From contig JAOAUN010000055.1 in the NCBI GenBank assembly GCA_030157545.1, forward strand, positions 31,517-95,516: 64,000 bases of DNA, in the 5' to 3' direction. This document shows positions 1,108 through 3,700 of this stretch, piece by piece. Both the position numbers and the translations under genes were made by a program. The stretch is from Burkholderiaceae bacterium (GTDB lineage Bacteria > Pseudomonadota > Gammaproteobacteria > Burkholderiales > Burkholderiaceae_D). The notes under the pieces were generated by a model. That model saw only the letters and a list, made by a program, of their open reading frames with translations, was not told the DNA's origin and searched no databases. How positions within the stretch are numbered: the first letter of the stretch is position 1; each line of letters opens with the position of its first letter.

Positions 1108-2346
1108 ATGCAAAAAATTACCAACACCATCGCAGTTGGCGTCGCCGCTGGAGAAAATAATTCGTCAGTTTTTTCGGTGTCCGAACATCAATCTGTACCG
1201 GTCATACGTAGCTTGCGATCACCCGAGCCGGTTACAGATTTTTCCTGTCTGCCGCGTGAAGTGCGGCATGAAATTTATGGCTGGGCGACGCGGCCGGTGC
1301 AGCTTTTGACTGGCCTGCCAGCGCTGGCAAAAACCACAAAATTCCAGCGCGAAGACGTGCTGGATTTCATGTGCAACGATGAGCGGGGTATCGCTTTTCG
1401 GCAAGCCTTGCAGGCTGTTCAGACTGGTTTATGGCATGACAATGCCAAGGCGCTGCTGGGCAATGCAGACAAATTGCGAATGGCGTTTGGTATCAGTTCA
1501 AAGCGATTGAGCAGCACTGCGGAGGAGGGTGTCAGCGGGCAGGCTGCGATTGACGCCTTGTCAAAATATATTGCTGTGCAGTTTTGTTTGCGCCATGTTG
1601 TCATTAATTTTGAAATCAGCCAGCTAATACGATGTGTTCGGAGCAAGCCGGTCAAGATAGATGCATCGGGCATAGGGCGTGAGCGTTACCTTAATGAGCT
1701 GGTGCCGGCGCTGGGTTTGGTGAATCCCGATTGCCAACTGATACTCGATCTGTCCAACAACGAATTGCGAACAGACGATTTGTTGCCGCTGCTTGCTTTC
1801 ATCAAAAAATCTCCGATCATTTATCAACTGGACCTGAGGAATAATTTCCTGTGCGAAGGCGAGGAAGCCTCTTTGCCTTTGGCCGCGCTATGCAAATTTG
1901 TCAGCCCCTTGTCCCACTTGTATCTTTCCAATACCGGTTTCAATGATGCGAGCGCACACTGTATTGCGTCGATACTGAATAAAAACCCCTGTCTGATGCA
2001 TCTCGACTTGCGCAACAATGCCTTGACTGAAGCGGGCACGCTTTCGGTGATCAAAGCAGTTGGCTATCAAACAGATTCCGGCCAATGGCAGGTGAACAGA
2101 GTGCTGACTGCTGTGCGCTTGCAAAAAAATAATTTCATGATGAATGACACGATTAGTCAGGCAATTATTGAATTACAAAATGTACTCGATGCAGATTGCA
2201 AACCAAAAAATGATGATCCATTTTCAGAAATTGGCGTGTATGTGGTTCAGGTTGATGACGTTGATTTGGCTCACACAGCCTTAAATCAGCTCATCATTTT
2301 TTATCAGGAAATTTTCGCAAAAAATGCCATCGCTGAAAGCCTATAA
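1108..2346 (+). CDS. leucine-rich repeat protein (ribonuclease-inhibitor/RNI-type LRR) with F-box-like N-terminal motif; eukaryotic-like
   Basis: About 28-aa repeats are visible: LDLSNNELRTDDLLPLLAFI, LDLRNNFLCEGEEA, HLYLSNTGFNDASAHCIASIL, HLDLRNNALTEAGTLSVI. The N-terminal segment is CLPREVRHEIYGW...LAKTTKFQRE. No signal peptide. Paralogue of 2444-3700. Confidence 0.75.
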   Translation: MQKITNTIAVGVAAGENNSSVFSVSEHQSVPVIRSLRSPEPVTDFSCLPREVRHEIYGWATRPVQLLTGLPALAKTTKFQREDVLDFMCNDERGIAFRQALQAVQTGLWHDNAKALLGNADKLRMAFGISSKRLSSTAEEGVSGQAAIDALSKYIAVQFCLRHVVINFEISQLIRCVRSKPVKIDASGIGRERYLNELVPALGLVNPDCQLILDLSNNELRTDDLLPLLAFIKKSPIIYQLDLRNNFLCEGEEASLPLAALCKFVSPLSHLYLSNTGFNDASAHCIASILNKNPCLMHLDLRNNALTEAGTLSVIKAVGYQTDSGQWQVNRVLTAVRLQKNNFMMNDTISQAIIELQNVLDADCKPKNDDPFSEIGVYVVQVDDVDLAHTALNQLIIFYQEIFAKNAIAESL

Positions 2347-2443
2347 AAATACGACGAGGAACTAGTTTGTAATTAGCGTTCCCGACTTTGCTTGCGTGCC
2401 ACTCTGAGAATTGGCGCGACTCAAAATATATAGGTAAATCCGC

Positions 2444-3700
2444 ATGCAAAAAACTGGTAATCGCATAAGCAATGTCATCGACAGTGCGCTGACAAGCACA
2501 CCCTTCAATGTGGAAGAAAGCGGCGACGTGCAAAAAGGCACACCGGAGGGTAATCCCTTCATGTTCGTGCCATCCACAATCACTACGCTGGAAAGTATTC
2601 CAGCCGATGTGAAAAATCTTATTTTTACCCACGCCGCCATGCCGGTGGAATTTCAACAAGGTTTGGTGGCGCTGGCAAAAACATCAAAAAATATGCGCAG
2701 CGCAGTACGGGAGTTCATGCGCAAGGATGAGAACGGTAAGGTATTTTCTACTGCGTTGAAAATCGGTCCGGCACCGTACTGGCAAGCACAGGCTAAAGTA
2801 CTTATCCGGAATGCCAAAATCTATCGCAAAGAGTTTCTGGGAAGTGCAGCCAGTGTCTGCAATAACGTGTCTATGAGGCTGAGCGGGGAGATGGCAACCG
2901 GTGCCCTGACTCGCTTCAAGGCGATCGAGTTCAATCTATGCAAGTTTGATTTTAATCCGGCAGTCAGTGAGCAAATCAGCAGCATCCGCGGCAAGCCGCT
3001 GAAGATCAATGCCAGCGGGTTCAAGGGTGAACTCGCTACGCTGCAAAGCATTCTGCAGACGGCATTGTCAGCAGTAGATGCGAGCTGTCCCGTCATACTG
3101 GACTTGTCGATGAATCGCATGCGAGACACAGACCTGCATCCTTTGCTTGCGTTCATGAAAATCAAGCCCATTATTTATCAGCTCAATCTTGATGGAAATC
3201 CGCTTTGCACAGGCAATCAGGCTTCTGCAGTACTACCTGAGTTGTTTCAACTGAAGACGCCACTGTCACACCTGTATATGAAAGAAACCGGATTTAATGA
3301 CGCCACTGCCCTCGCAATCCGGGATGCTCTGGCAGAGCATCCCTGCCTGCAACACCTTGATCTGCGCTCCAATACGCTGACGGAAGCCGGTGCGCTACCC
3401 GTCATTCATGCTGTCGGGTCGGAACGGCAGGATGGCGTTATCCATGCCAATACAAGCCTGCGTGGAGTGCGTCTGCAAAATAATTTGTTCAAAAATGATG
3501 TGGTCCTGAACGATGCTGTCAATCAGGCACTGTGCTGTTGGAAGAAAGCGATGGAAGGCAGGCCTGAATTTTTTGATGATACTTGCGCCCCGATTGTGCA
3601 AATCGAAGAGATCACTTTATTTTCGGCGAATTACTTCGATGAAGCTGCTTTAAAAAATCAACATATTGCGAATCAGGCTGCAGAAGATCAGCGCCTGTAA
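2444..3700 (+). CDS. leucine-rich repeat protein (RNI-type LRR), paralogue of 1108-2346
   Basis: Same architecture and the same MQK start. N-terminal segment SIPADVKNLIFTH...LAKTSKNMRSAV. Repeats LDLSMNRMRDTDLHPLLAFM, LNLDGNPLCTGNQAS, HLYMKETGFNDATALAIRDAL, HLDLRSNTLTEAGALPVI. Confidence 0.75.
   Translation: MQKTGNRISNVIDSALTSTPFNVEESGDVQKGTPEGNPFMFVPSTITTLESIPADVKNLIFTHAAMPVEFQQGLVALAKTSKNMRSAVREFMRKDENGKVFSTALKIGPAPYWQAQAKVLIRNAKIYRKEFLGSAASVCNNVSMRLSGEMATGALTRFKAIEFNLCKFDFNPAVSEQISSIRGKPLKINASGFKGELATLQSILQTALSAVDASCPVILDLSMNRMRDTDLHPLLAFMKIKPIIYQLNLDGNPLCTGNQASAVLPELFQLKTPLSHLYMKETGFNDATALAIRDALAEHPCLQHLDLRSNTLTEAGALPVIHAVGSERQDGVIHANTSLRGVRLQNNLFKNDVVLNDAVNQALCCWKKAMEGRPEFFDDTCAPIVQIEEITLFSANYFDEAALKNQHIANQAAEDQRL

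Follow-up and report, generated by a model that had tools for sequence, protein, structure and literature searches.

FBL1 and FBL2, two F-box-like/LRR paralogues encoded next to proC in a Burkholderiaceae bacterium, belong to a small bacterial protein family

The window, i.e. the whole 64-kb stretch of DNA that was analysed, contains near its start two adjacent genes on the forward strand, which we refer to as FBL1 and FBL2. FBL1 is an open reading frame (ORF) at positions 1108–2346 that encodes 412 aa with the N-terminus MQKITN, and FBL2 is an ORF at positions 2444–3700 that encodes 418 aa with the N-terminus MQKTGN. The two proteins are paralogues (40% identity over 355 residues, E 2e-79 in BLASTP), and a hydrophobic N-terminal signal is present in neither of them. 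This is in agreement with the initial annotation, which described two adjacent paralogues of ~415 aa that start with MQK and lack signal peptides. The features of the pair, with the evidence for each in brackets, are as follows:

1055..1079, + strand: promoter-like motif GGAACC-N14-GTTCC (ends 28 nt upstream of the FBL1 ATG)
1108..2346 including the stop codon, + strand: FBL1, F-box-like/LRR protein (ORF; AlphaFold2 (AF2) model; orthologues; metatranscriptome contigs)
1240..1377, + strand: putative degenerate F-box of FBL1, residues 45–90 (sub-threshold F-box-like_2; gap-free alignment to family member P0032; hhalign; AF2 helices)
1564..2127, + strand: ribonuclease inhibitor (RI)-type LRR domain of FBL1, residues 153–340 (AF2 strand/helix alternation; Foldseek; sub-threshold Pfam LRR_1/LRR_6; PF27087 on homologues)
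2358..2382, + strand: promoter-like motif GGAACT-N14-GTTCC (ends 61 nt upstream of the FBL2 ATG)
2444..3700 including the stop codon, + strand: FBL2, F-box-like/LRR paralogue (ORF; 40% identity to FBL1; orthologues; PDB sequence matches)
2588..2725, + strand: putative degenerate F-box of FBL2, residues 49–94 (sub-threshold PF00646; column-homologous to the FBL1 motif)
2912..3481, + strand: RI-type LRR domain of FBL2, residues ~157–346 (Pfam scan; FBL1 alignment; PDB sequence matches)

Upstream of FBL1 lies proC, which ends at position 1018, and the other side of the pair is occupied by a convergent MSHA-type pilus cluster composed of T2SSF, the MshE ATPase and a secretin. A functional tie to this cluster was rejected, as the genes are convergent and L002 keeps the FBL pair without the cluster. 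A role in anti-phage defence and carriage by phages were also rejected, since PADLOC gave no match and no relative was found in IMG/VR. Genes for secretion systems of type III, IV or VI were not found within the 64 kb, no RNA families were found in the window with Rfam, and full-length FBL1 and FBL2 had no NCBIfam match. The same 64 kb also encodes two ankyrin-repeat proteins. Two small contigs from groundwater metatranscriptome data match the FBL1 region (1554–1732 and 2151–2394). The records of the source organism come from freshwater, groundwater and bioreactor metagenomes only, and they identify no host.

FBL1 and FBL2 have the same layout, in which a disordered Ser/Thr/Asn-rich N-terminus of ~45 residues is followed by a three-helix region, two linker helices, the LRRs and a variable tail that ends with a conserved E/Q-x-L. 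In the AF2 model of FBL1 (pLDDT 78.8, pTM 0.77), residues 1–41 are disordered (pLDDT <50), and strands and helices alternate with a periodicity of 27–31 residues. Each protein contains ~6–7 repeats of 27–31 aa, among them HLYLSNTGFNDASAHCIASIL at FBL1 residues 270–290 and LDLRNNALTEAGTLSVI at FBL1 residues 299–315, and these conform to the definition of RI-like LRRs (~28–29 residues, an LxxLxLxxN strand and then a helix). The Pfam model LRR_6 matches FBL1 and FBL2 below threshold, as does LRR_1 for FBL1; LRR_6 is above threshold in relatives, and homologues carry the precomputed domain PF27087 (LRR_TMOD-LMOD). The RI type of the repeats, which had been proposed from the sequence of the window, is borne out by the matches of FBL2 in the PDB (phmmer; RanGAP1 at E 3.5e-7 and ribonuclease inhibitor at E 4e-6) and by the best Foldseek matches of the FBL1 model, which are ribonuclease inhibitor (5.7e-7), the NLRP1 LRR (TM 0.76) and the NOD2 LRR. 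Residues at the concave face of the LRR arc are invariant across orthologues and the termini are variable. The overall architecture, an F-box-like region and then RI-type LRRs, is that of a eukaryotic SCF substrate adaptor.

The F-box-like sequence reads LPREVRHEIY at residues 48–57 followed by LAKTTK at residues 72–77 in FBL1, and IPADVKNLIF at residues 52–61 followed by LAKTSK at residues 77–82 in FBL2. The clade of the window proteins (the window clade) keeps the pattern LP-x-E/D-V-x-x-x-I-Y/F, with five extra residues inserted between helices 1 and 2; in helix 3 it has T/S-K-x-F/M in place of the canonical C-x-x-W. With the helix-3 Trp and Cys gone, Skp1 binding may have been lost in this clade. 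When full-length FBL1 and FBL2 were scanned against Pfam, no F-box models and only sub-threshold LRR matches were obtained. The closest F-box scores were those of FBL1 with F-box-like_2 (PF13013; E 0.11–0.22, 12–12.9 bits, cutoff 21.6) and of FBL2 with F-box (PF00646; E 0.18, 12.2 bits, cutoff 20.5; residues 74–92 aligned with profile positions 21–39), and neither protein reached the curated Pfam F-box score. A profile of the close clade aligned with F-boxes in hhalign with a probability of only 2.7%. In the AF2 model of FBL1, the region forms helices at residues 50–60, 70–74 and 78–90 (pLDDT 70–88). A Foldseek search with an isolated N-terminal AF2 model (pLDDT 69, pTM 0.47) returned nothing below E 1, and with the full FBL1 model F-box proteins appeared only at E 0.05 or worse; in the searches of PDB and BFVD with the full model the LRR arc dominates, and giant-virus LRR proteins appear.

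The motif in the F-box region is conserved in ~35 family members, well above chance, and the helix-1 LP-x-E and hydrophobic positions are nearly invariant in the family. When N-terminal fragments from 19 family members were scanned against Pfam, only F-box-clan models matched repeatedly: F-box-like in 7 (best E 6e-7), F-box in 7 (best E 7e-6), F-box-like_2 in 4, PRANC in 3 and 2EXR in 2. One family member, P0032, is above the Pfam gathering threshold at full length, and its residues 80–120 match both F-box-like PF12937 (25.7 vs 24.3) and F-box PF00646 (22.6 vs 20.5). P0032 and FBL1 share 31% identity over 393 residues (FBL1 26–412, E 8e-46), and the alignment of the F-box stretch is gap-free. 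In hhalign, a broad family profile aligned with the F-boxes of Skp2, FBXW7 and FBXO31 with a probability of 86.8% (P 4e-6, score 30.9); the controls reached at most 12.7 in 200 column shuffles and 9.2 for the reversed profile. The alignments of the family to F-boxes share one register and the same 5-residue insertion. An hmmsearch of PDB sequences with N-terminal family profiles gave no significant F-box chain. With a canonical-looking subfamily, the natural sequences that scored best were the F-boxes of FBXW7 and FBXO31 (E ~1), which aligned in the correct register; genuine PDB F-boxes used as a control match one another only at E 1e-4 to 1. Profile–profile comparison and the intermediate sequences support the view that the N-terminal motif is homologous to F-box domains, at the level of the family only. 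The initial annotation, which combined an F-box-like motif with RI-type LRRs and called for a profile search, is upheld through the family (P0032 passes PF12937 and PF00646; hhalign 86.8%) but not by the window proteins alone, which stay below the cutoffs at E 0.1–0.2. A degenerate F-box that is missed by standard annotation is thereby recoverable via distant paralogues.

An exhaustive profile search of 1.84e9 representative proteins yielded ~18 representative clusters with proteins of 407–499 aa. This is a small, previously unnamed bacterial protein family. Where copies carry a name in the source records, it is always 'hypothetical protein', and most are unnamed. Among 185,579 species genomes the family is found at 1 locus, and a metagenome scan revealed one more locus only. 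Orthologues of FBL1 are 98, 88, 67, 65 and 52% identical to it, and those of FBL2 48–61%. The pair, or a single copy, is also located after proC in at least four further genomes of relatives, in which neighbouring genes are 87–97% identical, and the position after the housekeeping genes yggS-proC is conserved in several related MAGs of free-living type. Because they occupy the same place in these genomes, the FBL genes are old residents of the clade and not a recent insertion. The location between proC and the pilus cluster was therefore described correctly in the initial annotation, but not its origin by insertion. As for the phylogenetic distribution, which was proposed there as a check, the genes are syntenic and core-like in related genomes. 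The dN of the FBL genes is 5–15 times that of their neighbours, and dN/dS is 0.17–0.31 compared with 0.02–0.09, which shows fast evolution under overall purifying selection. Comparison with the flanking genes confirmed an atypical composition (GC3 of 0.52–0.53 vs 0.61–0.74 in the neighbours), and in all genomes examined the family lies 6–9 GC points below its flanking DNA. A locus has between 1 and 8 copies, with eight tandem paralogues in one bacterium and tandem sets on other contigs.

The sequence GGAAC-N15-GTTCC occurs twice in the 64 kb (0.03 matches expected), both times upstream of an FBL gene, and the motif was found upstream of every orthologue examined. In the distant paralogue arrays, an oriented variant, GGAACT-N14-GTTTC, precedes the first gene of each run; at these distant loci the motif is directed to the gene and lies after terminator hairpins. 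A search that allowed one mismatch found no motif upstream of the two ankyrin genes, and its count was at chance level. Its occurrence before both orthologues and array-leading genes suggests that GGAAC-N15-GTTyC is a putative dedicated ECF-sigma-like promoter. In the window clade it forms a perfect 5+5 palindrome and so might serve as an operator there. Effector promoters of Pseudomonas syringae and Erwinia contain the hrp box of the ECF sigma factor HrpL, with a GGAAC(C) −35-like element and CCACNNA downstream. The two motifs are alike in that a GGAAC(C) −35-like element is common to an effector-like gene set and can be used to find its members; they differ in the downstream element, which is yGTTyC in the FBL motif and not CCACNNA. 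GGAACTT is also the −35 motif of E. coli sigma-E (PMC3326320). The motif offers a testable way to find co-regulated genes.

The order of F-box, linker and LRR arc is common to the FBL family and eukaryotic FBXL proteins (Skp2, FBXL2, FBXL3, FBXL5 and FBXL17), and Skp2 has the same F-box register and the same key residues in helix 1. However, no FBXL protein is among the best 50 Foldseek matches, the FBL LRRs resemble those of RI, NLR and RanGAP proteins, the FBL F-box has the 5-residue insertion and the window clade is devoid of the helix-3 C-x-x-W. Bacterial F-box proteins are rare; where they have been studied, they act as effectors that are translocated and take over the ubiquitination of the host. 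The GALA/RipG proteins of Ralstonia solanacearum also come from the Burkholderiales (betaproteobacterial), have an F-box and then LRRs and form multi-copy paralogues. Their LRRs are of the CC type, with 24 residues per repeat and a GAxALA motif, whereas the FBL repeats are of the 27–31-residue RI type and not of the 24-residue GALA type; RipG genes are controlled by HrpB via the hrpII/PIP box, which differs from the GGAAC-N15-GTTyC found upstream of FBL genes. No RipG-like protein was found among the homologues. It has been proposed that RipG proteins act within host SCF complexes (PMC13243912). The NEX1a proteins of Parachlamydiaceae consist of an F-box, a conserved linker of ~50 aa and LRRs (PMC4209131, Domman et al. 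2014), and those NEX1 representatives that were tested in a heterologous assay in Shigella carried a type III secretion signal that was functional (PMC4209131). The FBL family resembles them in the succession of F-box, conserved linker and C-terminal LRRs (a likeness of architecture only, with NEX1a taken from its description, PMC4209131), in birth-and-death evolution with copy numbers that are very different between relatives, and in its occurrence in bacteria from aquatic and protist habitats. It differs in its F-box, which is degenerate in the window clade whereas that of NEX1a is clearly recognisable, in copy number (up to 138 per NEX1 gene family, 1–8 per FBL locus) and in the phylum and lifestyle of the carriers, which are obligate intracellular Chlamydiae in one case and a Burkholderiaceae MAG with a free-living type of gene content in the other. 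Homologue searches revealed no sequence relationship between the FBL family and NEX1. We assign FBL1 and FBL2 to the known kind of bacterial F-box-LRR proteins.

Because they are built like eukaryotic ubiquitin-ligase adaptors, FBL1 and FBL2 are probably, by analogy with Ralstonia and amoeba symbionts, tools for manipulation of a eukaryotic host. In our best explanation, to which we give a probability of about 0.5 as a whole, they are exported SCF-adaptor-like F-box/LRR proteins that act in a eukaryote and are controlled by a dedicated regulator. Their disordered N-terminus would probably serve for export into a eukaryote, either a host or a grazer such as a protist. There, the F-box would bind to the Skp1 of the host, and the LRR arc would use its invariant concave face to present a single conserved host protein for ubiquitination by the SCF ligase; alternatively, Skp1 or the target might simply be sequestered. 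A dedicated ECF-type sigma factor or regulator would act at GGAAC-N15-GTTyC and drive both genes in a manner similar to HrpL with the type III effectors of Pseudomonas syringae. Traits that resemble those of effectors are the high dN and dN/dS, the low GC content, the tandem paralogues, the rarity of the family, the two ankyrin-repeat proteins in the same 64 kb and the invariant concave face of the LRRs next to variable termini. Points against a role as host effectors are the sub-threshold F-box scores of FBL1 and FBL2, the lost Trp and Cys, the lack of type III, IV and VI secretion genes in the 64 kb, the metagenomic records that identify no host and the core-like synteny in related genomes, which would fit a housekeeping bacterial role too.

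The foremost of the alternatives, although in itself unlikely, is that FBL1 and FBL2 are exported binders of host proteins in which the F-box survives only as a non-functional relic. Their LRR arc would bind or inhibit a conserved eukaryotic protein without SCF, and the N-terminal helices would serve as a cap. This would account for the loss of the helix-3 Trp and Cys, the 5-residue insertion and the low scores of the window clade (Pfam E 0.1–0.2, hhalign 2.7%), for the concave face being the best-conserved part of the protein and for RI and RanGAP being the top sequence and structure matches. A relic should drift, however, and the F-box stretch is conserved like the LRR domain (mean entropy across orthologues of 1.15 and 1.11, respectively, and 1.9 for the termini), with near-invariance of LP-x-E and the hydrophobic positions of helix 1. 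We regard as improbable a purely bacterial role, in which the proteins would be cytoplasmic LRR scaffolds of an ECF-sigma regulon (envelope or other stress) and the likeness to F-boxes would reflect shared ancestry without eukaryotic hosts. The conserved spot after yggS-proC in free-living-type MAGs, the sigma-E-like GGAAC −35 element and the lack of both a signal peptide and a secretion system in the 64 kb are consistent with such a role. To our knowledge, however, bacteria lack Skp1, and no other partner of the F-box fold is known. Furthermore, PADLOC and NCBIfam match no bacterial system, the pilus cluster is not a constant neighbour (absent in L002), and the high dN, persistently foreign GC content and 1–8 tandem copies are traits of host interaction, unlike those of stress-regulon scaffolds. 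It is very improbable that the F-box likeness has come about by chance in a short helical motif of plain LRR proteins of unknown type. FBL1 and FBL2 alone are indeed never significant, and Foldseek and PDB profile searches lend no support; a chance match is nevertheless difficult to reconcile with F-box-clan models as the only repeated Pfam matches across independent members, with P0032 passing two curated thresholds, with an hhalign score far above the maximum of 200 shuffles and with a single register and insertion in all alignments.

The FBL family extends bacterial F-box-LRR proteins to uncultured freshwater and groundwater Burkholderiaceae, which are usually treated as free-living, and suggests that their association with eukaryotes, most plausibly protists, has gone unrecognised. 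If Skp1 is not bound, the proteins would instead exemplify a bacterial re-use of the F-box fold, likewise a novelty. A more far-reaching proposal, which we consider speculative and rather unlikely, is that the family and its private motif mark a hitherto overlooked host-interaction regulon of uncultured freshwater Burkholderiaceae, in which a dedicated ECF-type sigma factor would turn on 1–8 copies of F-box/LRR adaptors for delivery to protist grazers, and that the 'free-living' planktonic bacteria that carry it are facultative symbionts or parasites. If this were true, the motif would provide a genome-wide handle on the remaining effector repertoire, as the hrp box does in Pseudomonas syringae.

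The paralogous pair lies at one end of the window as two adjacent ORFs, as the initial annotation had described, and every string it quoted was found in its place. FBL1 and FBL2 are paralogues, 40% identical across 355 residues (E 2e-79). Upstream of FBL1, proC ends at 1018, and the features that follow are:

1055–1079: GGAAC-N15-GTTCC motif before FBL1, ending 28 nt before the ATG
1108–2346 (+): FBL1, ORF of 412 aa
2358–2382: GGAAC-N15-GTTCC motif before FBL2, ending 61 nt before the ATG
2444–3700 (+): FBL2, ORF of 418 aa, on the same strand as FBL1
3754–14000 (−): MSHA-type type IV pilus cluster, with T2SSF, MshE ATPase with an MshEN domain, secretin with STN/Secretin_N_2 and N_methyl pilin

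Several genes of the pilus cluster have no Pfam match, and pilT and pilU come after it. Between the convergent stops of FBL2 (3700) and the T2SSF gene (3754) lies a 9-bp inverted repeat (3719–3749; AGCGGATTG ... CAATCCGCT, 13-nt loop), which is without a T-run and was not flagged by the terminator scan. The pair had been described as inserted between proC and the pilus cluster; the position is correct, but a recent insertion is contradicted by the order yggS-proC-FBL1-FBL2, which is kept in related loci from other genomes or metagenomes (L011 and L002/L003). In locus L001, proC is followed by an FBL2-type gene only. The window, L001 and L011 have the MSHA-type cluster, which L002 lacks at the same place, so its linkage to FBL1 and FBL2 is incidental, and the cluster itself is an indel relative to a conserved proC...pilT/pilU-ubiA-lysR-recG backbone.

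An AlphaFold2 model of FBL1 (19-sequence alignment as input; mean pLDDT 78.8, pTM 0.77) contains the following parts:

Residues 1–41: disordered N-terminus, pLDDT below 50
Residues 50–60, 70–74 and 78–90: three short helices
Residues 92–118 and 120–140: two long linker helices
Residues about 153–340: strand/helix solenoid with a period of 27–31 residues
C-terminal part: poorly predicted, with a final helix at 390–410

The solenoid is of the ribonuclease inhibitor (RI) type, in agreement with the initial annotation: FBL2 matched RanGAP1 (E 3.5e-7) and ribonuclease inhibitor (E 4e-6) in phmmer, and the FBL1 model matched ribonuclease inhibitor and the NLRP1 and NOD2 LRRs in Foldseek (E from 6e-7). 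The window proteins stay below threshold with Pfam LRR models, and the precomputed annotation of homologues is PF27087 (LRR_TMOD-LMOD). The leader of the proteins is disordered and Ser/Thr/Asn-rich, and the absence of a signal peptide, also claimed at the outset, was borne out. Within the family, the extreme N-terminus is conserved as M-x-x-x-x-N-R (MQKTGNR, MLNTSNR, MHSTSNR etc.; window 1108–1128 and 2444–2464), an N-S-S motif is common to the disordered leaders, and the extreme C-terminus follows ...Q..F...A..E-[KR]-L, the last Leu being almost invariant (window 2308–2343 and 3662–3697). Either conserved end might act as a signal for export or sorting.

The N-terminal domain is, in all probability, homologous to the F-box. 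The F-box-like motif proposed initially is upheld through family members and profile–profile comparison and not by the window proteins alone, for which the sole Pfam match in the N-terminal half was F-box-like_2 (FBL1, E 0.22) or F-box (FBL2, E 0.18), both under the gathering score. Among 16 close relatives, F-box-like_2 was found in six and F-box in three (best E 0.003 in each case), and no other family was matched more than once. An exhaustive search of 1.84 billion representative proteins with the N-terminal profile returned only 18 at E 1e-3 or better, 16 of them with 407–499 aa and the same overall layout. When 19 N-terminal fragments were scanned, Pfam matches were to F-box-like (7/19, best E 6e-7), F-box (7/19, best E 7e-6), F-box-like_2 (4/19), PRANC (3/19) and 2EXR (2/19), with every other family at 1/19. 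Several distant members have a canonical appearance, as P0032 does (LPTELKHYIFNQLPHTTLFDPSLFALAVTCRDWHSVV); in full-length P0032, residues 80–120 exceed the curated thresholds of PF12937 (25.7 vs 24.3 bits) and PF00646 (22.6 vs 20.5 bits). FBL1 residues 26–412 align to P0032 with 31% identity (E 8e-46); the F-box stretch is gap-free, and FBL1 residues 48–87 are therefore column-homologous to a Pfam-significant F-box.

For hhalign, a small reference alignment was built from PDB-verified F-boxes of Skp2 (identical to 1FS1/1FQV), FBXW7 and FBXO31 (both from PDB search output). The broad family profile matched it with a probability of 86.8% (P 4e-6) and a score of 30.9, compared with a maximum of 12.7 over 200 column shuffles and 9.2 for the reversed control, in the expected register and with five extra residues inserted between helix 1 and helix 2. 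With a profile restricted to the window's clade, the probability was only 2.7%; in this clade T-[TS]-K-x-[FQM] stands in helix 3 in place of C-K-x-W, and the F-box is degenerate. No significant F-box was found with family profiles against PDB sequences, nor did Foldseek find anything when given the N-terminal model on its own (pLDDT 69). Low scores are usual for the F-box, because genuine PDB F-boxes match one another poorly, that of Skp2 matching the others only at E 1e-4 to 1.

Between the window and related genomes, protein identity is 87–97% for neighbouring genes and only 51–65% for FBL1 and FBL2. Their dN is 5–15 times that of the neighbours and their dN/dS is 0.17–0.31 (vs 0.02–0.09), so the genes are functional but fast-evolving; these evolutionary dynamics are effector-like. 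Conservation peaks at the F-box stretch and the LRR strands, and the concave-face residues Y239, Q240 and D242 are invariant, as are S-H-x-Y at 269–272 and D-x-R at 300–302. Since these regions are conserved while the termini vary, the pattern speaks for a single conserved ligand and against decay of the F-box. In FBL1 and FBL2, GC3 is 0.52–0.53, vs 0.61–0.74 in 22 of the 23 other window genes measured, the exception being the second ankyrin gene, and the comparison of GC with flanking genes suggested earlier placed the family 6–9 points under its flanks in every genome examined.

This is a very rare family, with about 22 clusters in a 5.8-billion-protein collection, one locus among 185,579 species-representative genomes (L001, a Burkholderiaceae MAG) and one extra locus in JGI metagenomes; none was found in the viral contigs searched. 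DNA of the window was found again in metagenomes from freshwater, groundwater, bioreactors and wastewater. There are two or three family genes on other contigs, and L009 (ENA metagenome contig k141_2797935, bacterial, 55 kb) carries eight. These tandem paralogues (5234–17254; 368–499 aa) are interrupted by one DUF3237 gene and flanked by an RND efflux operon on one side and LPS/sugar-nucleotide genes on the other, and GC is 0.50 in the array vs 0.57–0.585 in the flanks. On L010 (GCA_013565755.1, JACCDS012131952.1), a bacterial-looking 5.7-kb contig, P0035, a member of the family, and a 447-aa gene beside it adjoin a DUF2147 gene; contig numbers in the millions suggest that this assembly stems from the sequencing of a large eukaryotic genome, with the bacterium as an associate or a contaminant.

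The two GGAAC-N15-GTTCC sites are the only matches in 64 kb (0.03 expected), and the motif is present upstream of every orthologue fetched. Distant loci have the variant GGAACT-N14-GTTTC, in the gene's orientation only, just 3' of terminator hairpins and before the gene that opens each paralogue run; on L009, three such oriented motifs mark off what appear to be three transcription units. If the spacer is taken as 17 nt (GGAACy-N17-yCnnA), the motif resembles ECF-sigma promoters, with yCnnA in the place of the −10 element. The −35 motif of E. coli sigma-E is GGAACTT (PMC3326320). The window clade's version forms a perfect 5+5 palindrome, and for this reason it may also be an operator. Whichever it is, the family seems to travel with a regulatory signal of its own. 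In a groundwater metatranscriptome (run X25), two short contigs (1554–1732 and 2151–2394) match FBL1 with 1–2 differences, which is weak evidence of its transcription, though DNA carry-over may also explain them; the second extends across the stop codon of FBL1 and the motif ahead of FBL2, a hint of read-through transcription or, again, of carried-over DNA.

Precedents for bacterial F-box/LRR effectors are the Ralstonia RipG/GALA proteins (PMC13243912) and the Parachlamydiaceae NEX1a family (PMC4209131). FBL1 and FBL2 do not belong to the RipG/GALA family, because their LRR type differs and homology was not detected. They share the order F-box, conserved linker, LRR with NEX1a, although a sequence link to NEX1 was not seen; the NEX1 representatives tested carried a type III secretion signal that was functional when assayed heterologously in Shigella (PMC4209131). 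By analogy, FBL1 and FBL2 may work like such effectors: exported into a eukaryotic cell, they would dock on host Skp1 through the F-box and hold a conserved host protein on the LRR concave face, presenting it to the SCF ubiquitin ligase. We give this model a probability of about 0.5; the degenerate F-box counts against it, as does the lack of a translocation system within the 64-kb window.

That the proteins are exported LRR binders whose F-box is a relic is an unlikely alternative: helix 3 is altered in this clade, but the F-box stretch is among the most conserved parts, which argues against decay. A purely bacterial role is about equally unlikely; the lack of a translocation system in the window would favour it, and the effector-like evolution of the genes speaks against it. 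Chance resemblance to the F-box, for all the sub-threshold scores in the window, is very improbable beside the shuffled and reversed controls. Two ankyrin-repeat proteins in the window, at 23268–24353 (+; 361 aa, Ank_2 E 5.5e-28; between tgt and secD) and 45798–47054 (+; 418 aa, Ank_2 E 2.5e-8; low GC3 of 0.56), have long disordered Pro/Ser/Thr-rich N-termini without a signal peptide, and GGAAC-N15-GTTyC is absent upstream of both. They may be further eukaryote-like effector candidates, and they strengthen the impression that the genome is rich in eukaryote-like repeat proteins.

FBL1 and FBL2 represent a new, small sequence family of a kind that is itself already known. Its novelty lies in lineage and habitat (uncultured freshwater Burkholderiaceae), in a hidden F-box recovered through distant paralogues, and in a promoter-like motif by which a wider regulon could be found.
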